Program-made: the position numbers and the translations under genes
The notes under the pieces: model-generated
The model's database searches: none
What the model was told of the DNA's origin: nothing
What the model saw: the letters and a program-made list of their open reading frames with translations, nothing else
Assembly (NCBI RefSeq): GCF_000018105.1
Contig: NC_009925.1
Location: forward strand, 1,890,001-1,922,000
Direction: 5' to 3'
From: Acaryochloris marina MBIC11017
GTDB lineage: Bacteria > Cyanobacteriota > Cyanobacteriia > Thermosynechococcales > Thermosynechococcaceae
DNA length: 32,000 nucleotides
Shown: positions 6,755-31,134 of the stretch, piece after piece
How the letters are laid out: each line of letters starts with the position of its first letter
How positions within the stretch are numbered: the stretch's first letter is position 1

Positions 6755-6812
6755 GAATAGAAATATCTAAAGCACACCCTATTGCACCCAGTCAGTATTT
6801 TAGAAATTCCGA

Positions 6813-7517: not shown

Positions 7518-7531
7518 AGTATATTAGCATC

Positions 7532-12124: not shown

Positions 12125-12148
12125 ATAACCCTAAGCAAGAATAAATGA

Positions 12149-12925: not shown

Positions 12926-12930
12926 AGGTC

Positions 12931-13701
12931 CTATATTGATTTGCTTGAGTTGACAAGTGGCCGAGCCACAACTAGATAAACAGCGGAATTTTCTTGACGC
13001 TGTTCAGGGGAATAGGAACGATCTAAACAGCGAATAACCTGTTGCATCAATACAGCAAATACTCGTTTAAAGGGACTTCTTATCTTAGGAATTAAGGCAT
13101 CTTGAATCAGGCAGGCTGAAGCGGCTGCAAATCCCAGTACTCCAGTGATCTCAACGACGTCCCAATGGCAGTCTGTCAACAGCTTGGTGAGACCTGCTCC
13201 AGTCCAGCGCCAATAATCCGTCGGTATAGGATGGTAGGGCCAATAGCCATGGGTAGATAACAGCAAGAGGCCGTTGGCTTTGCAAACTCGATGGGCTTCC
13301 GCTAAGTAAGCAGCGGGAGATTCGACATGTTCCAACACCTGGGTGGAAATCACTAACTCAACACTGTTGTCACCCAGGTCAACACTGCCAGTATCCGGAT
13401 CAATGGCTAAATCAGCTAGAGAGTTACTCGCTAAGTCGGCCCCCAAATAGTTCTGGACCGTTGGGGTGAATAAACTACGATAAGGCATCGAGCCACAGCC
13501 CATATCGATCGCGGTTAAGTCATGATGCTGTTGATGGAGGGGTTGAACATGGTTCGCAATCGTTTGCTCAAGGGCCTGACGAAGCTTTACTAAAATGTAG
13601 TAGCGATCGCTGGTCCAGGATGGGTTGAGACGAGGTTCAACTTGATTGATCGTGTCGAGCGGATGGTCAGTTGAAGTTGGGGTCATATCCAGTCTCTGCA
13701 T
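12931..13701 (-). CDS. Class I SAM-dependent methyltransferase
   Basis: 256-aa ORF with motif I AIDMGCGSMPY, then VELVISTQVLEHV and CKANGLLLLS. Confidence 0.8.
   Translation of the reverse strand: MQRLDMTPTSTDHPLDTINQVEPRLNPSWTSDRYYILVKLRQALEQTIANHVQPLHQQHHDLTAIDMGCGSMPYRSLFTPTVQNYLGADLASNSLADLAIDPDTGSVDLGDNSVELVISTQVLEHVESPAAYLAEAHRVCKANGLLLLSTHGYWPYHPIPTDYWRWTGAGLTKLLTDCHWDVVEITGVLGFAAASACLIQDALIPKIRSPFKRVFAVLMQQVIRCLDRSYSPEQRQENSAVYLVVARPLVNSSKSI
13603..13610. repeat. HIP1 octamer GCGATCGC
   Basis: Exact match read in the sequence. Confidence 0.95.
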
Positions 13702-13706
13702 CTCCT

Positions 13707-15215: not shown

Positions 15216-15249
15216 GGGTTCGGCCTGATGATTCGGTCGACAGACTCAC

Positions 15250-17541
15250 TTAAGCTTTTAGGTAAGCATAATTTTTATGAGTGGGCGTAACGCCATTTGC
15301 CACGAGGCCAATCACATTTAATCTCTTGTGAGCAGAAATTGCTTTGGACAATTCTAATCGGGTGACTTGTTTCATTCGCCCCACCATCACAACACCATCG
15401 CACCCTAAACCGATGGGAATGGTATCGACAACGCCCAAAACTGGCGGACTATCAATCAAAATCAAGTCATAGTTATTTTCAAAAGCTTTAAGCACATCTT
15501 GCATCCGTTCTAAGCTCAGTAGCTTGACCGGATCGGCCGATAGCGGCCCCGCCGTTAGTACATCAATGCTGAGATCAGACGGAGGCAACGTTCCTGGATC
15601 CAGCTCAGACTCATCCCACCGCATATACACCCATTGTGGAGTGGTCTGCAGCTCTGCCAAGGTGACATTCCCATTGAGCAGGGTCGATAGTCCTTGGTGG
15701 TTATTCAAGTTAAACATATAGTGCAAGCTTGGATTCCGCAGATCCGCGTCAATCACAAGGACCCGTTGATCTAAGCGGGCAGCACTAATTGCTAGGCCTA
15801 GGGCCAAGGTCGACTTCCCTTCTCCAGCCCCAGCTGAAGTAATCATCAAGGTTTTGTAAGGATTTTTGGTTTGTAACAGCTGAATGTTGGTATAGATTAA
15901 ATCCAAGGATTCTCGCAGGGGCTGCCATTGAAATAGTTCCGGAGTCGTAAAGGTGGGGCTTTGGGTTTCGGCCACCGGCAGAATGAGCGAGTCACGCAAG
16001 TCAGCGCTTGAAAGTTCAGGAATCGCTCCGAGTAAGGGCAAGGGAAACTGATTGCCCAAATCATCTGAGTTATGGAACTTATCATCCATCGCCTCGCGCA
16101 CAAAGGCCGTGAGGCCCCCTAGAAATAGTCCCACCACTGCGCCCAACATTAAGTTACGACGGGCATTGGGGCTAATTTGCACTCCCAGTTGGGGGGCCTC
16201 GACCACTTGCCAATCAAAGCCACCTCGAGCAATCTCTAATCCCAGCTCTTGCCGAGCTTCTAGCAGCTTTTGCAACGTTCCTCGCCGAGTGGAAACTTCT
16301 GGTTGAAGGCGATTGAACTGGGCCAATAATTCAGGGTATTGCTTTAGTTCAGCTGTTAATTTCGCTTCGGTCTGAGCTAAGCTGCGATCGCGTGCTTGGA
16401 GACTCTGCAAGTTTTTCTGGAGCTCGCTCAACTGCCTAACGAGAGATAAATCATTGTCTCCAAACTGGCCTGCGTTGAGCTGATTTTCACTAGTGGGCAA
16501 CTGGCCCGCATCTCCCCCCAATACACGACCGACTTCCTGCTCTAGGAGGGCCAATTGATCTCGGCGCTGATTGAGTAAGTTAAAAATGACGGGATGATCT
16601 TCTGTCAGAGTCTGACGTTTTTGTGCTAGCTCTAATTCCGTTTGCTGAATTTGATTCAACAGAGACTGATACCGAGTCGATTCACTTAACCGAGCCGAAG
16701 TTCGGGCTTGCTCAGGGGCTAGCTGAATCTGCCGCTGCACACTGGTATAGCTGGCATAGGTTTCCCGATATTGAGCATCTAATGCTTGTCGTTCGGTTTT
16801 GATCCGGTCTAAAGCCGCGGATGCCGTTTGGGCTTGAGTGGCAGGGTCAATCACATTGGTGCCACTGCGAAAAGTCTTGAGAGCCGCCTCTGCTTCCAAA
16901 ACGCTGCGGCGAACCTCTGGCAATTGCTTATCAATAAATGCCAAACCTTTGGATAGACGGAGCTTCTGCTGTTCTAAATTGTAGAGTTGGTAGACCGCTA
17001 AAACCGTTTCTAAAATCTCTTGGGTTTTTTCAGGCTGAGTGCTGATATAAGTGGCTTTTAAGACTTTAGTCGCGACCTTGCCTTTACCTGTACTGTCTGG
17101 AGCATACACAGGACTAAAGGACAAGGATGACCGTAAATCCTCAATGGTGATATTCGGATATTCTGTTTGTAGGCGTTCAACAGCCCTAGACAGTACTTCC
17201 GACCCCGCCAACACCTGCAGTTGCGTTGTGAGATCCACTTGAACGTTTGGATCAGCAAACCGATTCTCCGCGGTCTTCGGCCCTAAACCATTGGGTTTGG
17301 ACTGATAGTTAGACTCCACCAGCAGCTGCATCGTGCTTTGATACAGGGGCTGAGTTTTCAACGTTAAGAATATAGAACCGGCAATGGCACCGGCAAAGGC
17401 ACCTAAAAACCAAAATTTCCGCCGGACTAAGATAGAAAGCAGATGTCCATAACCCCAGTCCTTATCAATGGTTTGGGCAATTAAAGCATCCTGTTGATGA
17501 GTAAGCTTATTAGGGGGTTTATATAAACTGCTTTCAGTCAC
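15250..17541 (-). CDS. Wzc/GumC-type polysaccharide co-polymerase fused to a BY-kinase-like P-loop ATPase domain
   Basis: 763-aa ORF with an N-terminal TM helix (FWFLGAFAGAIAGSIFLTL), a long coiled-coil periplasmic region and a second TM helix (LMLGAVVGLFLGGLTAF). The C-terminal domain has Walker A TSAGAGEGKST, Walker A' VLVIDADLRNPS and Walker B DLILIDSPP. GTG start. Confidence 0.85.
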   Translation of the reverse strand: MTESSLYKPPNKLTHQQDALIAQTIDKDWGYGHLLSILVRRKFWFLGAFAGAIAGSIFLTLKTQPLYQSTMQLLVESNYQSKPNGLGPKTAENRFADPNVQVDLTTQLQVLAGSEVLSRAVERLQTEYPNITIEDLRSSLSFSPVYAPDSTGKGKVATKVLKATYISTQPEKTQEILETVLAVYQLYNLEQQKLRLSKGLAFIDKQLPEVRRSVLEAEAALKTFRSGTNVIDPATQAQTASAALDRIKTERQALDAQYRETYASYTSVQRQIQLAPEQARTSARLSESTRYQSLLNQIQQTELELAQKRQTLTEDHPVIFNLLNQRRDQLALLEQEVGRVLGGDAGQLPTSENQLNAGQFGDNDLSLVRQLSELQKNLQSLQARDRSLAQTEAKLTAELKQYPELLAQFNRLQPEVSTRRGTLQKLLEARQELGLEIARGGFDWQVVEAPQLGVQISPNARRNLMLGAVVGLFLGGLTAFVREAMDDKFHNSDDLGNQFPLPLLGAIPELSSADLRDSLILPVAETQSPTFTTPELFQWQPLRESLDLIYTNIQLLQTKNPYKTLMITSAGAGEGKSTLALGLAISAARLDQRVLVIDADLRNPSLHYMFNLNNHQGLSTLLNGNVTLAELQTTPQWVYMRWDESELDPGTLPPSDLSIDVLTAGPLSADPVKLLSLERMQDVLKAFENNYDLILIDSPPVLGVVDTIPIGLGCDGVVMVGRMKQVTRLELSKAISAHKRLNVIGLVANGVTPTHKNYAYLKA
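16384..16391. repeat. HIP1 octamer GCGATCGC
   Basis: Exact match read in the sequence. Confidence 0.95.
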
Positions 17542-17551
17542 AATCTGTATT

Positions 17552-18679
17552 TCAACTTATAGAAGGAACAAAAGAATTTTGATTAATGGGTTGGGTCGGA
17601 TAAATTTGATTAATAACTTGATGAATTTTTTGAAAAAAGACGGGCTCAGAAAAGTGTGACAGGGCATGGTCACGAATATATTGATAGTCCCATTCGATCT
17701 GTTGAGATCGCACGAGCGCTGCCTGCAAGGATGAGGCAGTTTGTTGATGAAAAAACACACCTGTTTGACCTGGGACTTGGGTATCGATAACACCACCTGC
17801 ACCAAAAGAAACCACAGGTGTTCCACTCGCATTCGCTTCGACGGGAACCAAACCATAATCTTCTAGTGCCGCCACGACCACCGCTTTAGCTTTAGACATC
17901 AAATGACAGCGTTCGGCATCAGAGATATACCCTAGAAACTCGACGTTTGACTTAGCACGTCGTTCCAAATGCTCCCGTTCTGGGCCATCTCCCATAATTT
18001 TTAACGGCCAACCTAACTGATTAAACGCATCAATAATAACGTCAACACGCTTATAGCCCAACAGTCGGGCAGATACCAAGAAAAAATCTTCTTTGTGGTC
18101 TGAAAAAGAGAATTTAGAATTATCAATTGGATAATTAACTACTATCGCTTGTTTACTATAAGTCGACTGGATACGGCGGGCGACTTCGGTAGAGTTAGCA
18201 ATATATAGATCAGGTTCTTGGGCATAGGCAAGATCAGCCTTCCTCATCACCCGAAACATTTTCTCAATAAAAGGGTAGAGATGCTGATAATCCGCATACT
18301 CTCTCAAATAAGTTTGGGTATCCCAAAGAAAACGGGTGATGTTATGACAGAAGCAGATATGTTTGGCATCCGGCCGGGTTCGCACCGCTTTTGCAAAGCT
18401 GGTGCTACTGCTAATGATGAGGTCATATTTCTGTAAATCTAACGCCCTAAAAGCTGGATAATAGAAAGGAGCCAACAACCGAAAATACCGAGTAGCTCCG
18501 GGTAATTTTTGCAGAAGGGTTGTATGGACGAGGCGATCTCCCAACTCTATTGTTTGGTGAGGATCATAGAGGGAAGTGAATATATCTGCACTGGGGAAGT
18601 GACGACACAACAGCTCGAAAACCCGCTCAGCGCCTCCGCGTTGGGTCAGATAGTCATGAACTAGGGCAATCTTCATCAT
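17552..18679 (-). CDS. GT4-family glycosyltransferase
   Basis: 375-aa ORF with MMKIALVHDYLTQRGGAERV and LEDYGLVPVEANASGTPVVSFGAGG. Confidence 0.85.
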   Translation of the reverse strand: MMKIALVHDYLTQRGGAERVFELLCRHFPSADIFTSLYDPHQTIELGDRLVHTTLLQKLPGATRYFRLLAPFYYPAFRALDLQKYDLIISSSTSFAKAVRTRPDAKHICFCHNITRFLWDTQTYLREYADYQHLYPFIEKMFRVMRKADLAYAQEPDLYIANSTEVARRIQSTYSKQAIVVNYPIDNSKFSFSDHKEDFFLVSARLLGYKRVDVIIDAFNQLGWPLKIMGDGPEREHLERRAKSNVEFLGYISDAERCHLMSKAKAVVVAALEDYGLVPVEANASGTPVVSFGAGGVIDTQVPGQTGVFFHQQTASSLQAALVRSQQIEWDYQYIRDHALSHFSEPVFFQKIHQVINQIYPTQPINQNSFVPSIS

Positions 18680-19132: not shown

Positions 19133-20947
19133 TTATCGATAGTTCTGGGCTTGGGTTTCAAACATCGATGCATAGACCCCGTTGAGGTTCATCAACGTAT
19201 GATGATTACCTTCCTCAATCATGTGACCTTGTGACATCACATAGATGTAGTCAGCCATCTTAACCGTTGACAATCGGTGACTAATCAAAATAGCGGACTG
19301 ATCTTGAATGAGCTCTCGGAATTGTTGAAAAACCTCATATTCAGCTTTGGGGTCCATTGCACTGGTTGGCTCATCCAGAACAATCACTTGAGAATCCCTT
19401 AAGAAGGCACGAGCCAGAGCGATTTTTTGCCACTGGCCAATACTGAGTTCTTCTCCTTGATCAAACATCTTACCCAGAACGGTATCGTACCCTTGCGGTA
19501 AAGACTGGATGACTCGATCCGCTCCTGATAGTTGAGCCGCCGATCGAATCCGACGATCATCGGCTGGCCGCTCAATATTGCCTAACTGGATATTATCTCG
19601 GGCTGTGAAATGATATTTAGCATAGTCTTGAAAAATGACGCTGATATGGCTTTTTAGCTCAAGCTTACTAAAGCTTTTGAGATCGATGCCATCAATCGTG
19701 ATACTTCCCTCAGTGGGATCATATAGTCGACAAAGTAGTTTAATGAGTGTCGTTTTTCCAGAGCCATTCTCGCCCACCAAGGCAATAACTTGTCCGGGCT
19801 GGAGCTTGAGTGACACATTGTGAATCGCTTTCCGTTTGGTCGTAGCATATTGAAAGCTAACATTATTGAAAACCACTCCAGTAGCCAACGTTTCTGGGAA
19901 AGGCTGCGGGCGTTCGGGTTCCAAGACTTTGGACTCTATATCTAAAAATTCGTATAGATTCGCGAGGAACAAATTATCCTCGTAAAGCCCCGATAGACTT
20001 CGTAACAACCCCCTCAGACTGTTTTGACCTTTTTGCAACGCTTGATAATAGAGGACTAAGTCTCCCAACTTGAGAACGCCTGCCAACGTTTGCTGGACCA
20101 TATAGATAAAAATGGCAAAGACAAATAACCCTGCAATTACCTGAGCCCCAAAAAAGGCAAAGGATCGTTTAGAAACTATCCCTACTTTTTCCTTATAAAT
20201 AAGTTCTCGTAGCTGGGCATACCGCTGTCTGAAATGCTCTCCTAGGTTGAATAATCGAATCTCTTTGGCGAACAAATCACTGGTTTGTAACCACCCCAAA
20301 TACATTGCCTGCCGTTCTAGCTGAGTCCGACGGCGTTTCCAGTGGTACATTACCCCTGCAAATTTCATCCGCACCAATACAGTTGGAATTGCAGCCACAA
20401 ACAGAATTCCGACAATACCCCAATGCAGGGCCAACAATAATCCCAACATTGCTAGTAATGAAATTGAACTTTGCCCTGCTAAGGCCAACCGATCCAAGAT
20501 GCGGGGAGGCCGATAAGGCGCTTCTTGTTGGGCGCGCTGCAGAGCATCATAATATTGGGCATTTTCGTAATACTCTAAGTCAGCCGAAATCGATTTAGAG
20601 TGGATGATGCCCTGCATATAATCCGTGACTCGCTGAGCATGGGCAATGGTAACTAAATCTGATAGAGAGGCAAAGAGGGTCGTACTAATCGTCAAACAAG
20701 CGGCAACAACCAATAAAGGCACGATATCGTTGAGCGCGGCTGCTCGGTTCGAAAGTGCCAAACTAATCGTCACTTGATCGACAATTAGCTTAGTCATATA
20801 AATAGAAAATAAGGGTAGTATGCCCTGAATGATTACCAAGCCAATGCGTGCCAAAGTCCAGTTAGGACTGCTTTGCCAAACCAGTTTTAAAGCTGGGATG
20901 AAGTGCAAAGGGCGTTTAAATCTTGCTTTGATAAATCCAGTCAGCAT
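19133..20947 (-). CDS. ABC transporter, fused permease/ATPase half-transporter; candidate lasso-peptide exporter (D protein)
   Basis: 604-aa ORF with an N-terminal six-TM-type domain. Walker A GENGSGKTTL, signature LSIGQWQKIALARA, Walker B VIVLDEPTSAMD. It lies directly downstream of the precursor genes on the same strand. Confidence 0.85.
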   Translation of the reverse strand: MLTGFIKARFKRPLHFIPALKLVWQSSPNWTLARIGLVIIQGILPLFSIYMTKLIVDQVTISLALSNRAAALNDIVPLLVVAACLTISTTLFASLSDLVTIAHAQRVTDYMQGIIHSKSISADLEYYENAQYYDALQRAQQEAPYRPPRILDRLALAGQSSISLLAMLGLLLALHWGIVGILFVAAIPTVLVRMKFAGVMYHWKRRRTQLERQAMYLGWLQTSDLFAKEIRLFNLGEHFRQRYAQLRELIYKEKVGIVSKRSFAFFGAQVIAGLFVFAIFIYMVQQTLAGVLKLGDLVLYYQALQKGQNSLRGLLRSLSGLYEDNLFLANLYEFLDIESKVLEPERPQPFPETLATGVVFNNVSFQYATTKRKAIHNVSLKLQPGQVIALVGENGSGKTTLIKLLCRLYDPTEGSITIDGIDLKSFSKLELKSHISVIFQDYAKYHFTARDNIQLGNIERPADDRRIRSAAQLSGADRVIQSLPQGYDTVLGKMFDQGEELSIGQWQKIALARAFLRDSQVIVLDEPTSAMDPKAEYEVFQQFRELIQDQSAILISHRLSTVKMADYIYVMSQGHMIEEGNHHTLMNLNGVYASMFETQAQNYR

Positions 20948-21250
20948 AAATTGCCATTTGACAATGCGTAGTGCGAAACTATCCTAACCCTGTAAGCAAA
21001 GCTCAGCGAGGGAGAGGATCGATATAACCGCCCTTAAACAAAAGTCTGGGTTAAACGAATCTGCTATGCCGCTCATAAGTTCGAAACCTCAGAAAGACCA
21101 ACCGACAGATTAAAAAGGCGAAGTCGAGTTCACCATAACTCAGCCCAAAAAGACTGCATCACATAAGCTAGGAGTCTTTTAGCAAAGCTCAAATCGTTAA
21201 TATTTGGCATGCCCTACTATAGGAGGGTGCGATTTTTTCCGTTTTAGCTT

Positions 21251-21285
21251 AAACAAATAGAGCCAGCATTTGGAAGGCTGACTCT
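21251..21285 (-). terminator. Candidate intrinsic terminator/attenuator downstream of precursor A1
   Basis: The minus-strand RNA reads AGAGUCAGC-CUUCCAAAU-GCUGGCUCU. That is a 9-bp stem whose only non-Watson-Crick pair is a G.U in the sense transcript (it would be a C-A mismatch on the other strand). It is followed by AUUUGUUU and sits about 45 nt after the A1 stop. Confidence 0.45.
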
Positions 21286-21327
21286 ACTCGCTTCAATATT
21301 CAGTTGAACAATAACTGAAAAGGATGA

Positions 21328-21468
21328 CTATGACGTTACATCATCAATATCACCAACGGGAATTGTCCCGAAAGGCACATCTGTAGCATTCAATGACGGT
21401 GAATTCTTAGTCATATCTTCTACGCTGCCGTACACCTTCAATTGGGGTGCACCATAGGTTCTTTTCAT
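21328..21468 (-). CDS. Lasso-peptide precursor A1 (46 aa): MKRTYGAPQLKVYGSVEDMTKNSPSLNATDVPFGTIPVGDIDDVTS
   Basis: Hand translation; below the ORF-track size cut-off. Preceded by AAGGAG. The leader fits YxxPxLxxxGxxxxxTx (Y5,P8,L10,G14,T20). It lies between the cyclase and the ABC exporter. Compared with paralog A2, 36/46 residues are identical, and 17 of the identical residues use different synonymous codons. Confidence 0.85.
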   Translation of the reverse strand: MKRTYGAPQLKVYGSVEDMTKNSPSLNATDVPFGTIPVGDIDDVTS

Positions 21469-21550
21469 GGTCTTAGCTTACTCCTTACTTAATCTGTCGC
21501 TGTTTTAGCTTATGCAAGCATTTGCAAGTTAACAGCATCTAACTATAGTC

Positions 21551-21588
21551 AATTAGGTGTTTTACCCCCCAGGTCAGCTGTGAAACAA
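21551..21588 (-). promoter_or_regulatory. Conserved box upstream of A1 (sense strand TTGTTTCACAGCTGACCTGGGGGGTAAAACACCTAATT)
   Basis: Identical, apart from a 1-nt T indel, to 21888-21924 upstream of A2, while the surrounding non-coding sequence has diverged. Function unknown; it could be a promoter/operator or a 5' UTR element. Confidence 0.5.
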
Positions 21589-21652
21589 TCCACGCTGGAC
21601 CAGGACGCCCACATTCTAGCAACAATCAAAAATTAGTGACTGGATAAAATGA

Positions 21653-21793
21653 CTAGGATGTAATGTCGTCGATATCTCCAGGAGGAATGGTTCCAAAGGG
21701 CACATCAATGGCATTGATTGATGGCGCATTCTTCGTCATATCTTCTACGCTTCCGTAGGTTCTGAGTTGAGGTGCGTCATAAAATTTTTTCAT
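21653..21793 (-). CDS. Lasso-peptide precursor A2 (46 aa): MKKFYDAPQLRTYGSVEDMTKNAPSINAIDVPFGTIPPGDIDDITS
   Basis: Hand translation. Preceded by AAGGAG. Same leader motif and same architecture as A1, including the C-terminal Ser. Confidence 0.85.
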   Translation of the reverse strand: MKKFYDAPQLRTYGSVEDMTKNAPSINAIDVPFGTIPPGDIDDITS

Positions 21794-21887
21794 GGCTTTA
21801 GCTTGCTCCTTAAGTCATCTGCTTTTATCAGCTGTTCTGGTTTCCTTATATGGGTTGCCATACAAGTTGACAGCGTCTAATTAAATT

Positions 21888-21924
21888 AATTAGGTGTTTA
21901 CCCCCCAGGTCAGCTGTGAAACAA
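21888..21924 (-). promoter_or_regulatory. Conserved box upstream of A2 (second copy of the 21551-21588 box)
   Basis: See 21551-21588. It contains a CAGCTG palindrome and a G6 run. Confidence 0.5.
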
Positions 21925-22079
21925 GTTTCTAGCCGGACCTTGATACCGTTATTTGACATACTACCCAGTAGGCAAACTTGCCAAGCGGACATCAATTCAG
22001 CATACAAATCCAGTTAAGCTATTATAACTTCTCAAATATTTTGGGGACATTCCAATCCTTAAATATTCATTAGATTTGA

Positions 22080-24050
22080 TTACTGTAGAGTAGATTCGGC
22101 AAAATTGACGCCTAGATTGGCTTGTTGTAGCCAAAGAGTCAAATTAACGGCAATCCAAATCAACAGTGTATCGTTAGCTTCAGCCTCTCCCCTTTGCCAT
22201 CGCTGGACTAACTGAGTGAACTCGTGCATATCAATAAACGTCTCAATGGCATCGGGTGGATGATTGAGAACTTGATGAATTAGGTCCATACCGTACTTTT
22301 CTAGGGTATGGTCAAACGCTGTGCCCAAATTTCCTTTACCGGCACGCCATTGAATTTGAGGAGGAAGAATACCATCCAGTCCACGTCGGATAATTAATCG
22401 AGTCCAACCATTTTGCATCTTTTGTTCTTCTGGTAGAGAAACACAAAATTCCACTAACCGCTTATCCCAAAAGGGAAATCTCAATTCCACTTGGGAGGCA
22501 GCAGCTGTTCGATCCATCACTTCTAGGGTCGAAGAGACTAAGCCAGATGTAACGTCAACGATATGTTCGTGGCGCTGGGAAGGCTGTGCTCCAAAGCGCT
22601 GACGACGCAGGTGTTTATAACGCTGTAGCACGGATGCTCGATCAACAAAGTCTGGGGTGAGGGGGATGGCCCAGGGCCTGGCTGGAGTCACCTCGGACGT
22701 CTTCTGCTGCCCACGGAATTGCCAGCTTTTAACTTTACCTAAAATTTTGGTAATCTTTGTTTTTTTAAGGAGGGGATTGATGCCAAATTTACGGACATAG
22801 GACCGATACAAGGGCCATAAATCGTAACCAAAGCTTTGGCAAAACCCCCTCATCTCGCGCCATAACTTGAGCCACCGTCCTGCCTTGGCCAGAGTACGTA
22901 AATACCCAACACCATGAGATACCGCCTGATCACCATCAAAGCCATCCAATAACACCCTGACCGATTGGCTTTGAGCGATTTGATATAAGGCATGGGTTAA
23001 ATGGGCGTTACAGGCAAATAAGGGTTCGTCTTGGATAGCTAGCATGTGCTGATAATCGGTCCAGGGGCTGAGTTGATCGCCCTGTACATACTGAGGCTCG
23101 ATGGGTCGCTGATGAATCACGGCATTCATAAATTCCTGCTCATCAGATGCCGTAATTTCATTAAACACGGCGGAGAAAGTAGGGAATTTAGCGGTCTCTT
23201 GCGCCTCCTGTCTCAACTGGGCCGTCATACAGGTAATCGAGGAAGAATCAATTCCTCCACTTAACATTGTGCCGATGGAAAATGCACTTCTCAGGCGGCA
23301 GCGCACGGCTTCGGTGAAAATGGATTGAAACTGTTCCGCATAGGCTTGATCGGAGTCCAGCTGAAGTTCAAAGTCAGGATCGAGAGACCAATAGGCTGAG
23401 ATGTCCAAACTGTTTTGGCTTACTGTCATCCGATGAGCAGGAGGAAGACGAACAATCTGCTCATAAAAAGTCATTTCTGCATCAAATAGCATCAGGGTCA
23501 GATAGTCGGCGACCCTGGTTTCATTGAGGGATTTAGGCACTTCCAGCAAATGAAACAGCGCTTTCATTTCGCTGGCAAAGGCAAAGACTTGTTCGGAGGC
23601 ATAGTAAAAGAAGGGCTTGACTCCAAAATGATCGCGGGCGCAAAACAAATGCTGTTGAGTCTCATCCCAAAGGGCAAAGGCAAAATCACCTAAGAAATAT
23701 TCGGGGCATTGTTCGCCCCATTTTTCGTAGGCAGCAAGAATGAGGGCGCTATCGGTAATCACTGCTGAGGGAGACTCTTTCAGACCCAGCTGGGTCATTA
23801 GGTCCACACGGTTATCAATTCGGGCGTCTGCCGTCAAGATTAAAGTTTGGGAAGCGTTGCTAAGGGGTAGCGTTTCAAACCGGGATTCTGGGGTGGTCTG
23901 TAATAAACAATGGCCTAAGCCAACCCTATCTTGACTCCATTCATTGGTTCCATCCGGTCCTCGATGGGATAGAGATTGGACCATTTGGTGCAAATAATCG
24001 CTCCCCTCAGGATGAGGGTGAGGATAGACAAAGCCAGTAATTGCGCTCAT
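22080..24050 (-). CDS. Lasso-peptide cyclase (C protein), asparagine-synthetase B homolog
   Basis: 656-aa ORF. The N-terminus MSAITGF aligns with the AsnB MCGIxG but has Ser where the glutaminase nucleophile Cys is expected. PP-loop ATP-pyrophosphatase motif MLSGGIDSSS. The genomic context is B1/B2/precursors. Confidence 0.85.
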   Translation of the reverse strand: MSAITGFVYPHPHPEGSDYLHQMVQSLSHRGPDGTNEWSQDRVGLGHCLLQTTPESRFETLPLSNASQTLILTADARIDNRVDLMTQLGLKESPSAVITDSALILAAYEKWGEQCPEYFLGDFAFALWDETQQHLFCARDHFGVKPFFYYASEQVFAFASEMKALFHLLEVPKSLNETRVADYLTLMLFDAEMTFYEQIVRLPPAHRMTVSQNSLDISAYWSLDPDFELQLDSDQAYAEQFQSIFTEAVRCRLRSAFSIGTMLSGGIDSSSITCMTAQLRQEAQETAKFPTFSAVFNEITASDEQEFMNAVIHQRPIEPQYVQGDQLSPWTDYQHMLAIQDEPLFACNAHLTHALYQIAQSQSVRVLLDGFDGDQAVSHGVGYLRTLAKAGRWLKLWREMRGFCQSFGYDLWPLYRSYVRKFGINPLLKKTKITKILGKVKSWQFRGQQKTSEVTPARPWAIPLTPDFVDRASVLQRYKHLRRQRFGAQPSQRHEHIVDVTSGLVSSTLEVMDRTAAASQVELRFPFWDKRLVEFCVSLPEEQKMQNGWTRLIIRRGLDGILPPQIQWRAGKGNLGTAFDHTLEKYGMDLIHQVLNHPPDAIETFIDMHEFTQLVQRWQRGEAEANDTLLIWIAVNLTLWLQQANLGVNFAESTLQ

Positions 24051-24070
24051 GGGGGCAGAAGGGGCAAATG

Positions 24071-25288
24071 TTAGGAAGTAGAAGTGGGTTCAATCGCTTT
24101 AATCATCAGAAATCCCTCTTGAATCAAGTTTTGAGCTAAGGACAATCGTCCAGCATCGTTAATCAAACCACCAATGTCTTTAACAGCTAGATAGGGATGG
24201 TCAATCAGATCAGTCAGGGAGGTCGCTAGGAAAATAGGAAAGGTTAGACTTTTTTGATAGAAGTTCAAAACGATTTGAGTGGAATCTCTATCAACGGAGA
24301 AGAGAATATTGGGTCTGCGAGCAACGACAGAGTTGAGATTGAGCTGTGGCAGGTAAATCAGATCTTGGAATCGACCTTGGTCTTCTGATTTGCGATCGCA
24401 CAAAAATACCTTATGCTTCCGCTCTACCAGTTCTTCAGTCTTAACATTACTAATTAAGTACTGACTCAGGGTTTGAAACAACTCATAAAAAGCCTGCTGT
24501 TGCTCAGAACTGGAAAAACCGTGGGGAATCGCTTTCCGAAAGGCTGGGTCAGCCTGGGCGATGGTGACCAACTCCTCCAAGAGTTCATAGGCGAAGGTGG
24601 GATATAACCCTAGGGATGCATGCACAGAGGTGGTCTCCTGACTAGCCGCTTGATGGACTACCCCCCGAGGAATATAAAGCAAATCACCAGGCTGAAGCAT
24701 TACCGTTAATTCCGGCTCCGCCAGTTTATGGCGGCCAATACTTTGATCGCGGATGTGAGAGGGGAGTTCAACAGGAGAATGGTAGAGTTTCCATTCCTTT
24801 TCCCCCGTGATTTGGAGAATAAACACATCATGTTCATCGTAATGAGGGGCTAAGCCCTGGGCCTGGGGGGGGGTGATATAGATATTGGTTCGTAGCTTAA
24901 ACTTCAGCTCGCATTCTAGAGCACTGCAAAAATGTCTCAGCTTGGGAATTTTCTTATGAGCCCCATTGATAGTCAAGGTTAAGCCTTGATGCAACAGGCT
25001 ATAGAGCTTGTCGTTATTAATAAAATACTGTTGGGATTTAGAGTGGCGATCACACCAGTCTTCCAGACTGAGCTTATTACCCTGATCCACTAGGCGAAAG
25101 TTATTGTAATCCGCCAACAACGCTTTGTTTTGCAGCAGAAGATCGATGTCCTCTGGCTGTAAAACTGACCCATAAAATGAGGCATCATTCCTTGGCAAAT
25201 AGAGGGTTTTTGTTTCCCAATAGGTCTGGAAAAAATCCTCAATCGTGCAAGGAGAGATTAAACGGGCAAATTGAGACTCAACCTTCAT
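24071..25288 (-). CDS. JmjC/cupin_4-type (ribosomal-oxygenase YcfD/RoxA-like) Fe(II)/2OG oxygenase
   Basis: Facial triad context APHYDEHDVFILQITGEKEWKLY (HxD) and LLYIPRGVVHQA (distal His). The ORF track starts at TTG 25321; the ATG at 25288 (MKVESQ..) is preferred and overlaps the kinase stop by 11 nt. Confidence 0.75.
   Translation of the reverse strand: MKVESQFARLISPCTIEDFFQTYWETKTLYLPRNDASFYGSVLQPEDIDLLLQNKALLADYNNFRLVDQGNKLSLEDWCDRHSKSQQYFINNDKLYSLLHQGLTLTINGAHKKIPKLRHFCSALECELKFKLRTNIYITPPQAQGLAPHYDEHDVFILQITGEKEWKLYHSPVELPSHIRDQSIGRHKLAEPELTVMLQPGDLLYIPRGVVHQAASQETTSVHASLGLYPTFAYELLEELVTIAQADPAFRKAIPHGFSSSEQQQAFYELFQTLSQYLISNVKTEELVERKHKVFLCDRKSEDQGRFQDLIYLPQLNLNSVVARRPNILFSVDRDSTQIVLNFYQKSLTFPIFLATSLTDLIDHPYLAVKDIGGLINDAGRLSLAQNLIQEGFLMIKAIEPTSTS
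24392..24399. repeat. HIP1 octamer GCGATCGC
   Basis: Exact match read in the sequence, inside the lasso cluster. Confidence 0.95.
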
Positions 25289-26183
25289 GGGCCAGGATGT
25301 GATTTTCAACGAGGGTAGCAATGTCCGGTAGTAAGTCGAGGGAGGCTGGCCGTAAGAGACGCAAAAGTGGCACTTGTTGAGCCAGGAGCATCAGTTGCTT
25401 AAAATGGTTGGCTCCTCGCTCCTGCAATAAAGTTTGCTCAAAGCGGGTGACATAGGAGTTTTGCATCAAATGTTGAATAATCTCCTGGGGCGGTAACGGC
25501 TTAATGGCGACTTCCTCCCCCTGTCCCAGCACAAAAATATATCTCAAGGGCAGAATGTCAGACATAAAGCCAGAAGAGAGTTGATGATTGCGCTTTTCTA
25601 AGCGGGCCCCTAGTCGTGGTAAATCCTCGGGCTGCTTGCCAATACAGGTGACCGCATCGGGCCACAGCTTGATTTGTGGAAAGGCAGGCTGTACCTGAAT
25701 TTGATGGCGTTGGACCTCTAGGGCTACCACATCATCCGCAATCAAGCTATGGCCACGATCATGCAAAGTCGCTGCCATCGTGGATTTGCCCCATCGCTTT
25801 TGACCAATAAAGGCCACCGCTTCTCCTTCCAACGCCACGGCACTGGCATGGAGGACCAAAAATCCGCGTTGATGCAGCACAACTCCCATGACCGCACCCA
25901 GAATAAAGAGTCGGAGACGATCCTCATCGAGATCAATCTCTAGATCAATCAGGACATCCTGGCCTTCCTGAATCAAAAACGTACCGACTCCTTGCCAATA
26001 TAAATACATTCCTGAATCGTTATTTTGATAGCAATGCAGGGTGTCTCCCGTCTGCAAAGGACTATCGGTAATGGCATCAAAATGAATCCAGACATCCGCA
26101 TCCGTTGCCAGGGTGGGAATCAGTTCTGGCAGTTTAATTTCAGACTGAAGGGTCAAGCCATAGGCTGAATAAAAGTGGGACAT
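25278..26183 (-). CDS. HPr-kinase/phosphorylase-like P-loop kinase (lasso precursor Ser kinase candidate)
   Basis: 301-aa ORF. P-loop FIGQKRWGKSTMAATL preceded by LHASAVALEGEAVAF and followed by LIADDVV, the arrangement of the HprK C-terminal domain. Sits in the lasso-cluster context. Confidence 0.75.
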   Translation of the reverse strand: MSHFYSAYGLTLQSEIKLPELIPTLATDADVWIHFDAITDSPLQTGDTLHCYQNNDSGMYLYWQGVGTFLIQEGQDVLIDLEIDLDEDRLRLFILGAVMGVVLHQRGFLVLHASAVALEGEAVAFIGQKRWGKSTMAATLHDRGHSLIADDVVALEVQRHQIQVQPAFPQIKLWPDAVTCIGKQPEDLPRLGARLEKRNHQLSSGFMSDILPLRYIFVLGQGEEVAIKPLPPQEIIQHLMQNSYVTRFEQTLLQERGANHFKQLMLLAQQVPLLRLLRPASLDLLPDIATLVENHILAHEG

Positions 26184-26312
26184 AGCAATTAGCGGCTATC
26201 CAGACTCAAAGAATAACGTTTTTAAGGGATTTTTGCCTTCAGCAGTTAGGGTGACATATGGGAGCAAAGTAGCAGATCATCAGCGGGACAAACCTGCAGA
26301 TTGAAACCACCC

Positions 26313-27236
26313 TTACCGTTGGTCCCGAGGTAGTAATTTCTTGAGTTTGGATCTTAGTTTTTTGAGAAAGGGTTGAGTGGGTTGAGGCTCGTTTGCCGTA
26401 AACAGTTTATAAATTAATGCTTCGAACAGGGGATTTGGCGCCATAGAGTCCGGATGAATGATGGCATCTAAATTCAAATTAAAGGTTGGCAACTCATTTA
26501 AACCTTGGTTCCCTTGGGTATGACTGCCTTGAGTGCCAATATTGGAAATCAGATTGACCTTCGGCACAACGGTGAGACCGTCCTGAGCGAGACAAGAATA
26601 AAACCATGGAATATCCCAAACCTGTTGGTTCTGATAGGCCCAGTCAAATAATTGGGTCACCCAATCCGTGAGGGCCTGTTGCTCAAAAAATTGGGGTTGG
26701 GTTTGCTTGAACTGAGGCCACCCCGTCATCGTGAGGTCGTTGCCTTGCCACGCTCTGCGCCAAGAGGCCCATCCCCAAGACACAAAAAATTTAGAGAAGA
26801 CATAGGTCTGGGGAATAGAAAGGGTATCTCGCAAAAAATTACTCCCCGAGATGGTCTTGACTTGGAATTGATGACGGTACTGAGCTAACATCCCTTGGCA
26901 AAACGGGAAAAAGCTGGGATGGGGAAGACAGTCATCTTCTAAAATGATCGCTTCTTCCACCTGAGAGAACACCCAGTCCAACCCCTGGACATTACAAGAC
27001 CGTCCCCCCAGGTTCGATTCAGCAAAACGGGTGAACACCTCGCACTCCCAATCCACTTGATCAACAATCGCCCTTGCTTGCTGGCATAAATCATCATCCT
27101 CGGGCACATCAGCTCTCGGGCCATCCGCAACGATAAACAAGGTTGACGGTTTGACTTGGGCAATCGCTGCAAATACCTGATTCGAATATTGCGGACGATT
27201 GAAAATATGAAGGGCAACGGGAGTGGAAAAAGGCAT
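26313..27236 (-). CDS. GT-A-fold glycosyltransferase (GNT-I / 'HlpA-like' type)
   Basis: 307-aa ORF with VALHIFNRPQY...LFIVADGPR, AIILEDDCLPHPSFFPF (an EDD motif in DxD position) and WGWASWRRAW. From memory this pattern matches bacterial GNT-I-like glycosyltransferases. No search was run. Confidence 0.55.
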   Translation of the reverse strand: MPFSTPVALHIFNRPQYSNQVFAAIAQVKPSTLFIVADGPRADVPEDDDLCQQARAIVDQVDWECEVFTRFAESNLGGRSCNVQGLDWVFSQVEEAIILEDDCLPHPSFFPFCQGMLAQYRHQFQVKTISGSNFLRDTLSIPQTYVFSKFFVSWGWASWRRAWQGNDLTMTGWPQFKQTQPQFFEQQALTDWVTQLFDWAYQNQQVWDIPWFYSCLAQDGLTVVPKVNLISNIGTQGSHTQGNQGLNELPTFNLNLDAIIHPDSMAPNPLFEALIYKLFTANEPQPTQPFLKKLRSKLKKLLPRDQR

Positions 27237-27250
27237 GGGAGAAGCAAAAT

Positions 27251-27859
27251 TCAGACAAACCAGCTGACAATGGTGAATCGTTCACCATGGGTGACGGGTT
27301 TAACTTCATGCCAGAGATCGGAACGGAAAGCGATCAGCTGGCCTTGTTCCGGTTCTAAGGGAAAGCCATAGTTTTGACCACGAGCATCATTGAGTAACCC
27401 ATAGAGCGCTAAGGCTCCCCCCCCAAAGGTCTGAGGACTAGGCTCAGCGGACATGCCGTTGAGAAAAATAATTAAAGACACTAATCGATTTTTTTCAAAC
27501 TTGGAGCCCGGTAGGCTCGGATCGATCACATCTCGATGCAGGCCAAAAAAGTCGCCCACTTGATAGCGGTAGCAGGAGGGAGGTTCAAGGGCATGGAGTT
27601 GAACCTCAAAATGAGTTTCTAATCGCGGTTTGATGGCAATTAAGCGCTCACGAATCCCCTTGATCGTGGTTGGGCTGATTTGCAACTGGCCTGTTTTCCG
27701 TCGACTATCGTCGGTCACAGCCTCCCCGTATCGGGTGAGACGAGCAGGCTCACAGGGGCAGGTCTGTGCTTCCGTGAGGTAGGACTCACAGAATTGTGGA
27801 TCTAAGAAGCCAGGGTCTACAAATACCCCCAAGCGTTCAAAAAAAGCAGCGCTAGGCAT
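27251..27859 (-). CDS. Prolyl-4-hydroxylase-like Fe(II)/2OG oxygenase (2OG-FeII_Oxy_3 type)
   Basis: 202-aa ORF with YQVGDFFGLHRDV (HxD), SLIIFLN...GGALAL, LIAFRSDLWHEVKPV (distal His) and GERFTIVSWF (2OG-binding Arg). Confidence 0.75.
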   Translation of the reverse strand: MPSAAFFERLGVFVDPGFLDPQFCESYLTEAQTCPCEPARLTRYGEAVTDDSRRKTGQLQISPTTIKGIRERLIAIKPRLETHFEVQLHALEPPSCYRYQVGDFFGLHRDVIDPSLPGSKFEKNRLVSLIIFLNGMSAEPSPQTFGGGALALYGLLNDARGQNYGFPLEPEQGQLIAFRSDLWHEVKPVTHGERFTIVSWFV

Positions 27860-27929
27860 TGCTCCGAACCTTTTATTCAGTGATAAAAAAATATTTAATA
27901 TTCTAGGTCAAGTCCCCAGAGGATGGGAC

Positions 27930-28388
27930 TTAGATCTTGGACTCAAACGATGGCATCGGCGTAAAGCGAGATAAGTCCTTCACAAAACCCATGATCACTT
28001 GCCCTTGTAGTTCAACCCAGGCATGGGCTTCAAGGGAATGATCCTCTGCTTTCGCGACCCCAATTTTTAGCTCGGGTTCATAGCCTCGTCGGCAAATTAA
28101 GACTTGCGTAACGAGGGCTCGGGCTAAACATTTCACGTGTCCTGGCATAAATCGGCTACTAGTGTTCACTGCCCAGATCACTTTTCCGACAGTTCTACGA
28201 CTAATCTTTCTGAGGGTAGGGGTTTGATAGTAGGCAGGGGGGTTGTGAAAATTGGCCAGCCATTTCTGCAGGATTTTGAAAGGCAGCAACCACAATCCCA
28301 ATCGAACCAAACCCAACAAAACGTAGGTTTTGATCAAGAGAGTGCGATCGCAACTTTGCAACCGCAAAAATTTAAGCAGTGGCGACAT
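27930..28388 (-). CDS. Lasso-peptide leader peptidase B2 (transglutaminase-like Cys protease)
   Basis: Motifs HVKCLARALVTQVLICRRGYEPELKIGV (catalytic Cys) and LEAHAWVELQGQVI (His). The ATG at 28388 is preferred over TTG at 28400. It overlaps the B1 stop by 17 nt. Confidence 0.85.
   Translation of the reverse strand: MSPLLKFLRLQSCDRTLLIKTYVLLGLVRLGLWLLPFKILQKWLANFHNPPAYYQTPTLRKISRRTVGKVIWAVNTSSRFMPGHVKCLARALVTQVLICRRGYEPELKIGVAKAEDHSLEAHAWVELQGQVIMGFVKDLSRFTPMPSFESKI
28344..28351. repeat. HIP1 octamer GCGATCGC
   Basis: Exact match read in the sequence, inside the lasso cluster. Confidence 0.95.
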
Positions 28389-28677
28389 CTTTGATCTCAA
28401 TCAAATCTGATTCAACCAGTTCATTCAGCAACCTGAGGACATCCTGTTCACACTGGTCCGACTCAACTTCGTACTGGTCCAGAATTTGGTCGCAGATGTC
28501 TTTAACCGATCGAGGTTGCTGAAGTAAATTCCAAATACTTGCACCCACTTCATTCAAACCGAAGTACATTCCTGTCTTCAGGTTGAGAATTACTGATTCC
28601 CCTGCTAAGTCAGATGAGACTTGCTCTGGGGTCGCAACAACCGTTGTATTCGTTGAAATAGTGGTAGTCAAACTCAT
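28372..28677 (-). CDS. Lasso-peptide B1 protein (PqqD-like RiPP recognition element)
   Basis: 101-aa ORF with LAGESVILNLKTGMYFGLNEVGASIWNLL...ICDQILDQYEV....CEQDVLRLLNELVESDLI, the PqqD-family pattern. Confidence 0.85.
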   Translation of the reverse strand: MSLTTTISTNTTVVATPEQVSSDLAGESVILNLKTGMYFGLNEVGASIWNLLQQPRSVKDICDQILDQYEVESDQCEQDVLRLLNELVESDLIEIKDVATA

Positions 28678-30092: not shown

Positions 30093-30231
30093 GGATTGAT
30101 TACCTTTTTAGAATACAATTCCCAGATTTTTCACAAACAGTCAGCAAAATGTTACGTAGCAGTCTGACAGAGAATCCTAGTTGGAAAACAATATCGATAG
30201 TCTCAGTCATCGACGAAGGACAGAATCACGT

Positions 30232-31134
30232 ATGAGTCTAGAACGCAACAATTCCTTGAAAAATAGCGCAACGCTTCCAAAAGTACTTTTACACGTCGGT
30301 CGTCATAAGTCTGGTACGTCTGCCATACAAGCTTTTCTAGCGCTCAATGACGAGCTGCTTGCAGAAGAATATGGTGTACTTTATCCGCAAATCGGACGAG
30401 ATCCAAAAGGCAACTACCATCACCCTCTATTTCGTCCTTTGGTTGAGAATATGGTGCCTTTGGATCAAGCTAAACTCCACAAGATTCAACAAGAAGCACA
30501 GGATCGAAATTGTCACACTATCTTGTTGTCTTCAGAAATGCTAAGTCGGATCAAATTATCGGAAGATCACCTGAAAGGCGTCCGAGATGCATTTCAAGGC
30601 CATGAAATACGCGTCATTCTGTACTTTCGCCAACAAGATTCTTTCTTGAGATCAACCTATGCCCATCGGATCAAGATTGGTTTTGTCGCAGCTCCGACAA
30701 AAATTCAAGATTTAGATCCAGCAATGGATTACTTTGAATTTGCGAACCGTTACGCATCCATTTTTGGTAAGCATGCTTTAACGATAAGAAGCTATGACGA
30801 AGATACAGCTAAAGGCTTATTTGAAAGCTTTCTGTCAATTATGGATATACCCTTATCGGACGCTTTTTCACGCCCAACCTCTCGTGTCAACCAGCGGTTA
30901 CCGTGGCGTTATATTGAGTTGATTCGGCACGCAAATCGCTGGCCATGGACCCGCAAGCTGGCCATGCATCGGTATGTCCATCGCACTGCAATCAACCTTT
31001 TGCGTCAATTCCCCGACTTTATGGATAGCCCCGAACCCCTCTCGCCAGAACAAGGTCATCAGATTGTCATAAGCCAACAAACAAGTAATAACCAGCTCGC
31101 CCGTGAATTTCTGAATAGAGAGAGCCTATTTTAA
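30232..31134 (+). CDS. Sulfotransferase-like protein (tentative)
   Basis: The only clear plus-strand gene. LLHVGRHKSGTSAIQ resembles the PAPS 5'-phosphosulfate-binding loop (K-x-G-T-[ST]), followed by ILLSSEML. The ATG at 30232 is preferred to TTG at 30181. The call rests on motif memory only. Confidence 0.4.
   Translation: MSLERNNSLKNSATLPKVLLHVGRHKSGTSAIQAFLALNDELLAEEYGVLYPQIGRDPKGNYHHPLFRPLVENMVPLDQAKLHKIQQEAQDRNCHTILLSSEMLSRIKLSEDHLKGVRDAFQGHEIRVILYFRQQDSFLRSTYAHRIKIGFVAAPTKIQDLDPAMDYFEFANRYASIFGKHALTIRSYDEDTAKGLFESFLSIMDIPLSDAFSRPTSRVNQRLPWRYIELIRHANRWPWTRKLAMHRYVHRTAINLLRQFPDFMDSPEPLSPEQGHQIVISQQTSNNQLAREFLNRESLF

Follow-up and report, generated by a model that had tools for sequence, protein, structure and literature searches.

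A probable kinase-type lasso peptide operon with two oxygenases and a glycosyltransferase in Acaryochloris marina MBIC11017

Described lasso peptide systems and the Acaryochloris locus

Paeninodin and pseudomycoidin are the only phosphorylated lasso peptides named in a 2025 paper on phosphorylation of cyanobacterial RiPPs (ribosomally synthesised peptides that are modified after translation); both come from kinase-type clusters, which hold a kinase related to HPr kinase. Here we describe a locus in a 32,000-nucleotide stretch of Acaryochloris marina MBIC11017 (contig NC_009925.1, positions 1,890,001 to 1,922,000, hereafter the window, whose own numbering we use throughout). Ten genes on its minus strand, at 19133-28677, very probably form a resident and selectively maintained lasso operon of this paeninodin/pseudomycoidin type, to which four genes for tailoring enzymes all belong: a kinase, two oxygenases and a glycosyltransferase (GT).

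The paeninodin cluster of Paenibacillus dendritiformis and the proteobacterial ThcoK and SyanK clusters resemble the window locus in having a split B1/B2 pair, a cyclase, an exporter, an HPr-kinase-like kinase and a precursor that ends in Ser. They belong to another phylum and have another gene order, whereas in the window the kinase gene lies upstream of the cyclase gene and overlaps the gene for a JmjC-type oxygenase; paeninodin, unlike the window, has no oxygenase and no GT-A glycosyltransferase. Pseudomycoidin (Bacillus pseudomycoides) is likewise kinase-type and is glycosylated, but its sugar is added by way of the nucleotidyltransferase-like PsmN and not by a GT-A enzyme, and there are no oxygenases in its cluster (PMC6993621). 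The closest prior remark concerns a Stanieria cyanosphaera PCC 7437 cluster that Zyubko et al. 2019 mention in passing as having a kinase and a glycosyltransferase and no B genes (PMC6993621). This cluster, known from that mention only, is like the window in its kinase and recognisable glycosyltransferase, and like two loci discussed below (L084/L085) in lacking B genes.

Other described systems share single features with the locus. Canucin A of Streptomyces canus is modified by CanE, the one hydroxylase of an actinobacterial cluster without kinase or GT, whereas the window encodes two unrelated oxygenases. The davasins of Streptomyces davaonensis have a dedicated cluster glycosyltransferase, IgtG, that O-glycosylates the peptide, but it modifies a Ser iteratively once the lasso peptide is mature; assays of it used microsomes, and it is reported to be the sole GT of its kind in lasso clusters (PMC11912497). 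The window GT differs from IgtG in being a soluble-looking protein of 307 amino acids (aa), with a predicted GT13-like GT-A fold, from a polysaccharide-synthesis family. In eukaryotic O-glycosylation of hydroxyproline (Hyp), as by PhyA and Gnt1 on Skp1 of Dictyostelium and in algae and plants, and in that of collagen hydroxylysine (Hyl), an Fe/2-oxoglutarate hydroxylase makes the acceptor for a GT-A enzyme paired with it; this is protein modification, and the analogy with the window is one of fold and gene adjacency only. As reviewed to June 2026, the characterised tailoring of lasso peptides comprises phosphorylation, PsmN-dependent hexosylation of phosphoserine, Ser-glycosylation by IgtG and Asp hydroxylation by CanE, together with Trp hydroxylation, methylation, acetylation, citrullination, epimerisation, halogenation, prenylation and cross-links (PMC8498205, PMC11912497). 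Cyanobacteria are not mentioned in those reviews of tailoring.

The ten open reading frames (ORFs) of the window locus, read directly from its sequence, are intact and fill a compact operon of 9.5 kb. They are listed in the order of transcription with the main support for each call; dN/dS is the ratio of nonsynonymous to synonymous substitution rates, AF2 is AlphaFold2 and P4H is prolyl-4-hydroxylase.

28372..28677, minus strand: B1, predicted PqqD-like leader-recognition protein, 101 aa (PF05402, NF033536, dN/dS)
27930..28388, minus strand: B2, predicted transglutaminase-like leader peptidase, 152 aa, ATG at 28388 (NF033537, PF13471)
27251..27859, minus strand: predicted P4H-like Fe(II)/2-oxoglutarate oxygenase, 202 aa (PF13640, AF2 model, fold matches)
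26313..27236, minus strand: predicted GT-A fold glycosyltransferase, GT13-like, 307 aa (AF2 model, Foldseek, invariant EDD)
25278..26183, minus strand: predicted HPr-kinase-like lasso kinase, 301 aa (PF07475 sub-threshold, 3tqf, invariant motifs)
24071..25288, minus strand: predicted JmjC-type Fe(II)/2-oxoglutarate oxygenase, 405 aa, ATG at 25288 (PF08007, MINA53/NO66)
22080..24050, minus strand: C, predicted Asn-synthetase-like lasso cyclase, 656 aa (NF033535, PP-loop)
21653..21793, minus strand: precursor A1, 46 aa, leader MKKFYDAPQLRTYGSVEDMTK, core NAPSINAIDVPFGTIPPGDIDDITS (NF033528, leader motif)
21328..21468, minus strand: precursor A2, 46 aa, leader MKRTYGAPQLKVYGSVEDMTK, core NSPSLNATDVPFGTIPVGDIDDVTS (NF033528)
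19133..20947, minus strand: D, predicted ATP-binding cassette (ABC) exporter with fused permease and ATPase, 604 aa (PF00005, NCBIfam)

A preliminary description of this DNA had reported the ten co-directional genes in this order; all of its coordinates were reproduced, and profiles, structure and fold support its functional calls for the ten genes. The ORF lister begins B2 at a TTG at 28400 and the JmjC gene at a TTG at 25321. We adopted the ATG starts at 28388 and 25288, which agree with the public gene calls for B2 and, on two of three contigs, for JmjC. With these starts the B1/B2 overlap of 17 nt, the kinase/JmjC overlap of 11 nt and the P4H-GT gap of 14 nt given in that description hold; the public call on the third contig (L001) uses the TTG start for JmjC, by which the kinase/JmjC overlap would be 44 nt. 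The remaining intergenic gaps measure 70, 129 (between GT and kinase), 20, 286, 184 and 380 nt.

Evidence for a maintained lasso operon with two precursors

The core of the locus is recognised by models built for lasso systems. B1 matches NF033536 (lasso_PqqD_Bac) with 87.5 bits against a cutoff of 80 and PF05402 with an E-value of 4.5e-23, while B2 matches NF033537 (lasso_biosyn_B2) with 118.7 bits against a cutoff of 33 and PF13471 with 9.7e-32, its Cys and His being found in the expected contexts HVKCLA and EAHAWVE by direct reading. The cyclase scores 905.7 bits against the cyanobacterial model NF033535 (lass_lactam_cya, cutoff 525). It has the PP-loop SGGIDSS and an N-terminus MSA without the glutaminase Cys2, Ser2 being invariant over 27 homologues, and shares 95 % identity with the Acaryochloris sp. 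CCMEE 5410 protein that NCBI names 'lasso peptide isopeptide bond-forming cyclase'. The exporter matches PF00005 (9.7e-34) and full-length NCBIfam models of the MsbA/HlyB type, and proteins 60-67 % identical to it are encoded beside related cyanobacterial lasso clusters. Judged by these matches, with which Pfam agrees, the predicted B1, B2, cyclase and precursors make this a split-B lasso cluster. Curated NCBI models for cyanobacterial lasso cyclases and precursors already exist and the cluster core is recognised by public annotation. Membership in Haft's 'HPr-rel-A' or SynChlorMet systems was considered and rejected: the matches to TIGR04352, TIGR04353 and ScmC are weak and far under their cutoffs, and the lasso-specific models win.

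NF033528 (lasso_cyano, cutoff 33) matches the leaders only, with A2 at the cutoff (33.0 bits) and A1 just below it (32.0 bits); the lasso-specific profiles that the preliminary description asked of B1, B2 and the cyclase are passed, and A2 reaches that for the precursor. Seventy distinct precursors of the clade share the leader motif Y..P.L.V[HY]G.VE.[IL]T[QK], which in the window takes the form Y..P.L..YG.VEDMTK. Both window leaders end ...DMTK, which puts Thr at -2 and Asp at core position 9. By this family alignment the cores are predicted to have 25 residues, as first proposed, with an Asn1-Asp9 ring and a C-terminal Ser; the length is adopted because the leader motif is family-wide, with Thr at -2 and Asp at core position 9. 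The first acidic residue within core positions 7-10 falls at position 9 in 40 of the 70 clade precursors, and 33 of the 70 have a C-terminal Ser, A1 ending ...DDITS and A2 ...DDVTS. The two cores hold three to four prolines and no Arg, His or Lys, and the predicted tail has a single bulky residue, Phe12.

Comparison with related genomes, which for Acaryochloris were found by exact-protein look-up, indicates that the operon is under purifying selection. All ten genes recur in Acaryochloris sp. CCMEE 5410, in unchanged order and between the same neighbours, on a 2-Mb contig. Against this genome dN/dS lies between 0.04 and 0.17 in each of the ten genes, the two precursors and the four tailoring genes among them (B1 0.08; GT 0.17; A1 0.13; A2 0.07). 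In the more diverged metagenomic relatives L084/L085 the block P4H-GT-kinase-JmjC-C-A-D and the same downstream neighbours are kept; the L084 cyclase is 65 % identical, and dN/dS against L084, where synonymous sites are saturated, is 0.04-0.13 wherever computable (0.035 for A2). The window holds seven copies of the HIP1 octamer (GCGATCGC) against 0.16 expected. The cluster contains two of them (24392 and 28344), as the preliminary description had noted, and HIP1 density is equal inside and outside it; GC content is 46.1 % inside and 45.1 % outside. The claim made from those octamers, that this is resident cyanobacterial DNA, is borne out by HIP1 density, by GC and by two diverged Acaryochloris-type genomes that are syntenic with it and have its flanking genes. 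Given the dN/dS values and the synteny with CCMEE 5410 and L084, to which HIP1 adds in the same direction, the cluster is old in its lineage, vertically inherited and maintained.

Although the L084/L085 cluster itself (~9364-17645) is under purifying selection, neither B1 nor B2 is found in the roughly 9-10 kb to each side of it, a situation like that of the Stanieria cluster, which lacks B genes, and of pseudomycoidin, which forms independently of them (PMC6993621). Pairs of TldD/PmbA proteases lie near two unrelated cyanobacterial lasso loci (L084, 3596-6478; L088, 12533-15369). Such a pair might replace the leader peptidase, or its proximity might be coincidental.

Three further elements surround the precursor genes.

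21888..21924, minus strand: conserved element TTTCACAGCTGACCTGGGGGGTAAACACCTAATT, about 34 nt, about 100 nt upstream of A1; candidate precursor promoter or regulatory site
21551..21588, minus strand: second copy of this element, about 100 nt upstream of A2
21251..21293, minus strand: 17-bp hairpin with a U-rich run, 35 nt past the A2 stop; candidate attenuator or transcript-stabilising element between precursors and exporter

The two copies of the upstream element share 28 nt at 100 % identity within a duplicated unit that is 73 % identical overall. The element is also conserved in CCMEE 5410, and in part in L084. At the place that corresponds to the hairpin, L001, L084, L007 and L088 have one with another sequence; the region after A1 folds no better than its shuffles (z -0.15). 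Upstream element and hairpin would fit an expression control specific to the precursors.

Tailoring enzymes and their contexts in the clade

The preliminary description had named family profiles for the four tailoring enzymes. These bear out the two oxygenases, fail to match the GT and place the kinase under its gathering score. For the kinase, PF07475 gives an E-value of 5.1e-7 and 29.8 bits against a gathering score of 33.3, the NCBIfam score is 34 against a cutoff of 200, and the HPr kinase (HPrK) structure 3tqf is matched with 5.9e-5. The P-loop GKST at 132-135 and the pair D150-D151 are invariant among homologues. This DD pair corresponds to the D158/D159 metal site of PsmK, which has been mutated in that enzyme (PMC6993621). 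A kinase homologue stands next to the cyclase in most of 83 related loci; clusters of this cyclase clade have the kinase as a rule, not as an extra. We accept the call since a significant sub-threshold match, invariant catalytic motifs and a conserved position coincide. With a predicted HPr-kinase-related kinase and precursors that end in Ser, the locus appears to be a kinase-type lasso cluster.

The P4H-like protein matches PF13640 (2OG-FeII_Oxy_3) with 2.3e-15 and 57.8 bits (cutoff 27). Its AF2 model has a predicted local distance difference test score (pLDDT) of 95 and finds as best PDB fold the Pseudomonas prolyl hydroxylase PPHD (4iw3, E 1.6e-11, TM 0.73), followed by Dictyostelium PhyA (6t8m), an algal P4H and PHD2, and also by PiuC and PolD. 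The triad H108-x-D110...H184 and the 2-oxoglutarate-binding R194 are invariant among homologues. The subfamily counts about 1,190 representatives. A metagenome scan with an alignment of the closer relatives yielded 80 loci, of which 32 had at least 4 kb of flank; lasso genes were present at 24 of these 32, often with the kinase immediately upstream. The family is predominantly lasso-associated. On the grounds of its modelled fold we take a core proline as the target of this enzyme; the fold relatives PiuC and PolD act on other substrates, and proline-bearing cores also occur without it.

The second oxygenase matches PF08007 (JmjC_2) with 6.2e-32 and 110.2 bits (cutoff 22) and the PDB entries of MINA53 (2.3e-31) and NO66 (1.4e-28), and its H149-x-D151...H212 is invariant among homologues. 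Its subfamily comprises 198 proteins, mostly cyanobacterial, and adjoins a lasso kinase in all five other contexts examined (L007, L088, L089, L090, L091), which belong to Scytonematopsis, Chlorogloeopsis, Moorena and two metagenomic contigs at 34-36 % identity. The protein shares the fold of the ribosomal oxygenases (YcfD/RoxA, NO66, MINA53) but is unlikely to be one, because the cores have no Arg, His or Lys and the subfamily stands beside a lasso kinase in every context examined. As those three residues are the substrates of ribosomal oxygenases, and following precedents of the FIH and CanE types, we tentatively suggest the beta-carbon of an Asp or Asn as the target. Both oxygenase subfamilies are recurrent lasso-associated enzymes in kinase-type clusters of cyanobacteria and soil metagenomes.

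The GT matches no Pfam family (E <= 0.01), including GNT-I (PF03071), no NCBIfam model and no PDB sequence. Its alignment-based AF2 model (pLDDT 89; predicted TM-score 0.86) finds POMGnT1 (5ggi, E 4.9e-11) and GnT-I (1fo8, E 8e-10) at the top of the Foldseek matches, then GnT-II, SpsA and other GT-A enzymes, with the collagen Hyl-galactosyltransferase also among them. E100-D101-D102 is invariant in 36 homologues and is placed after the fourth beta-strand in the model; it is probably equivalent to the EDD motif of GnT-I. The earlier guess of a GNT-I-like GT-A enzyme agrees with these folds and this motif. Since the family profile is unmatched, and PF03071 is carried by one of the 120 listed homologues, we describe the protein as a predicted GT-A enzyme with a GT13-like fold and not as a member of GT13.

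At least 7,893 relatives make the GT family a large one. A clade at or above 55 % identity sits in lasso clusters of three lineages (the window and CCMEE 5410; L084/L085; L174/L175), and in these the GT gene lies directly 3' of the P4H-like gene, at 14, 28 and 35 nt. The L174/L175 lineage is a HIP1-bearing cyanobacterium of 38 % GC with the order B1-B2-P4H-GT-cyclase, in which the gene after the GT is the cyclase and not the kinase; these short contigs show no adjacent glycan genes. A GT homologue occurs in none of the 80 metagenomic P4H-like loci. An obligate coupling of P4H and GT is therefore rejected in one direction (P4H without GT) and kept in the other, lasso-clade GTs standing beside a P4H in all three lineages. 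The GT is the sole lineage-specific part of the cluster and derives from a polysaccharide-synthesis family.

To place this set of enzymes we compared the window proteins with 80 genomic loci around cyclase relatives, collected by an alignment-based scan. The common layout in the clade is B1-B2-cyclase-precursor(s)-kinase-exporter, found in many cyanobacteria, Mesorhizobium, Acidobacteria, Chloroflexota, Gemmatimonadota and Methanobacteria. Five loci (L037, L041, L046, L053, L077) belong to Methanobacterium/Methanobacteriaceae, with cyclases of 36-40 % identity, kinase homologues and matching leader motifs, so the kinase-type lasso family spans bacteria and archaea. Some metagenomic loci are more decorated than the window. 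L090 (~700-16431) carries three sulfotransferases, an ATP sulfurylase/adenosine 5'-phosphosulfate (APS) kinase, two Asp/Arg hydroxylases, PrmA-like and other methyltransferases, GT2, GT8 and a nucleotidyltransferase, and L091 (~1-9188) has two 2OG-FeII_Oxy_3 genes, PhyH and sulfotransferases beside a kinase-JmjC pair.

In the literature searched, with most subscription journals outside it, there was no characterised cyanobacterial lasso peptide (only genome-mining mentions), no lasso peptide with hydroxyproline, JmjC-type hydroxylation or a GT-A sugar, and no characterised cluster that combines a kinase, two oxygenases and a GT-A glycosyltransferase. To this extent the novelty claimed in the preliminary description stands. 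Its degree was overstated, given that NCBI models exist, the kinase is near-universal in the clade, the oxygenases recur and the Stanieria remark dates from 2019. The cluster is not a conceptual surprise either, as the field expects many untested tailoring enzymes; the window combination is one instance among largely unexplored, heavily tailored clusters of the kinase type.

A proposed pathway, its alternatives and their meaning

Beyond the identity of the genes, every chemical step given here is one that we infer. Two 46-residue precursors would be made, probably in excess over the enzymes, with an upstream element for each and the hairpin after the second, and B1 would bind their conserved leader. 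At the linear, leader-bound stage the kinase would phosphorylate the C-terminal Ser25, the P4H-like enzyme would hydroxylate a core proline and the JmjC enzyme another side chain, most likely at the beta-carbon of Asp or Asn. Precedent for this stage comes from HPrK-type kinases, which act on linear lasso precursors by phosphorylating their C-terminal Ser, and from CanE, which hydroxylates the linear precursor (PMC8498205). B2 would then cleave after Thr-Lys and the cyclase would adenylate Asp9 and join it to the amine of Asn1, giving a 9-residue ring and a 16-residue tail. The GT13-like enzyme would add a sugar, its preferred acceptor being the hydroxyproline made by the adjacent P4H-like enzyme and its main alternative phosphoserine, and the ABC transporter would export the product. 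Phosphate, hydroxyl and sugar may act as a steric lock on the threaded tail; we consider a lock by added groups because Phe12 is the tail's single bulky residue. In pseudomycoidin, where a hexose is carried on phosphoserine, bulky C-terminal modifications have been proposed as a topology lock (PMC6993621).

Hydroxyproline is favoured as acceptor on account of the one-way association and adjacency of GT and P4H, together with the hydroxylase-then-glycosyltransferase logic of Skp1, extensins and collagen. In Skp1, in plant and algal Hyp-glycoproteins and in collagen it is established that a residue is first hydroxylated and the new hydroxyl then O-glycosylated. Enzymes of these pathways stand among the fold matches of both window proteins: PhyA and an algal P4H for the P4H-like protein, the collagen Hyl-galactosyltransferase for the GT. 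By analogy with these systems, we tentatively propose that the GT glycosylates hydroxyproline, a step that we hold to be possible and somewhat less than probable. The whole chain, in which the P4H-like enzyme makes hydroxyproline, the GT glycosylates it and the sugar, phosphate and JmjC hydroxyl together form a steric lock, is a speculative proposal that we rate as possible and less than probable.

Several observations weigh against this reading. The kinase, judged by sequence, scores under the curated Pfam and NCBIfam cutoffs. Asn at core position 1 is uncommon, occurring in 4 of the 70 clade precursors (it is seen in the window, L004 and L111), and we know of no characterised lasso peptide with Asn as core residue 1. 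With one bulky tail residue the product might, like purified pseudomycoidin, be an unthreaded branched cycle. The substrates of the oxygenases are not readable from sequence: when cores with and without each enzyme were compared, in small samples, Pro, Asp and Asn were common in both. The P4H-GT link is based on three lineages only, and the nearest structural relatives of the GT transfer N-acetylglucosamine (GlcNAc) to a sugar and not to a peptide. Scans for consensus promoters and terminators across the cluster gave matches at chance level and were not used.

It is conceivable that the same cluster works differently at its glycosylation step, with the GT capping the phosphorylated C-terminal Ser and the two oxygenases adding independent, non-glycosylated hydroxyls, a scheme that we also rate as possible though doubtful. 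Both precursors end in Ser and a kinase is encoded, and among lasso peptides of the kinase type no glycosylation is known other than a hexose on phosphoserine. In pseudomycoidin this sugar blocks the removal of the phosphate by phosphatase, and Zyubko et al. proposed that the 'clearly recognizable glycosyltransferase' of the Stanieria cluster might do the job of PsmN (PMC6993621). A PF14907 nucleotidyltransferase, the PsmN kind of protein, is present in L088 and L090 and absent here, and the GT could substitute for it. GT-A enzymes that add a sugar to a phosphate oxygen exist, the polyprenyl-phosphate glycosyltransferases being one example. The gene arrangement speaks for the P4H as partner, without being decisive: the GT directly follows the P4H in all three lineages, the next gene in L174/L175 is the cyclase, and in the window 129 nt separate the GT from the kinase as against 14 nt from the P4H.

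A second alternative takes the GT, and possibly the P4H-like protein too, to be off-pathway, as a stray or shared member of an adjacent polysaccharide gene set. GT relatives at 44-51 % identity do have Methyltransf_21, flippase, GT4 and GT2 genes as neighbours in polysaccharide clusters, and the lasso cluster abuts a large glycan cluster. This polysaccharide/O-antigen-type cluster lies directly downstream at 1050-18679, is co-directional and contains five GT4 genes, two Wzy-like genes, methyltransferases and a Wzz/tyrosine-kinase, with a flippase seen in the CCMEE 5410 orthologue; these genes also come after the lasso cluster in CCMEE 5410 and L084. The lack of a GT homologue at the 80 metagenomic P4H loci points the same way. 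We nevertheless judge this alternative improbable, for the GT gene stands between B2 and the kinase on the same strand, 14 nt past the P4H and with a dN/dS of 0.17, the P4H-GT pair recurs inside lasso clusters of two other diverged lineages, and the P4H-like family is mainly lasso-associated.

The least probable reading, a silent or decaying remnant without a product, could appeal to the related L084/L085 without B1/B2 nearby and to the lack of a cyanobacterial lasso peptide in the literature searched, but ten intact frames, dN/dS of 0.04-0.17 in every gene (at most 0.13 at saturating divergence) and intact catalytic residues speak strongly against it, and missing B genes are no proof of inactivity, since pseudomycoidin forms without B1/B2 (PMC6993621).

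Two further features of the window lie outside the operon. An insertion sequence (a helix-turn-helix protein and a DDE_3 transposase) is embedded in the polysaccharide cluster at 4347-5595. On the plus strand, at 30181-31134, a 317-aa ORF without a Pfam match contains GRHKSGTS, which resembles the loop of sulfotransferases that binds 3'-phosphoadenosine-5'-phosphosulfate (PAPS); CCMEE 5410 has a DUF4279 gene in its place.

As a maintained kinase-type lasso operon, the locus does not represent a new kind of system but is a good target in the search for natural products. Lasso scaffolds are valued for their stability and the characterised set of tailoring reactions is small, and here three enzymes of unassigned chemistry stand in one operon. 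A single characterisation of the P4H-like and JmjC oxygenases would annotate many clusters, and the product would apparently be the first from the large cyanobacterial lasso clade. The cluster could also test whether post-translational groups replace bulky residues as the lasso lock. If the GT does glycosylate hydroxyproline, the operon would be a bacterial, RiPP-dedicated counterpart of the eukaryotic Hyp-O-glycosylation of Skp1 and extensins; its product would be the first of the characterised lasso peptides to contain hydroxyproline or a sugar linked to Hyp, and two lasso oxygenase families that are widespread in metagenomes would gain their first substrate assignment.

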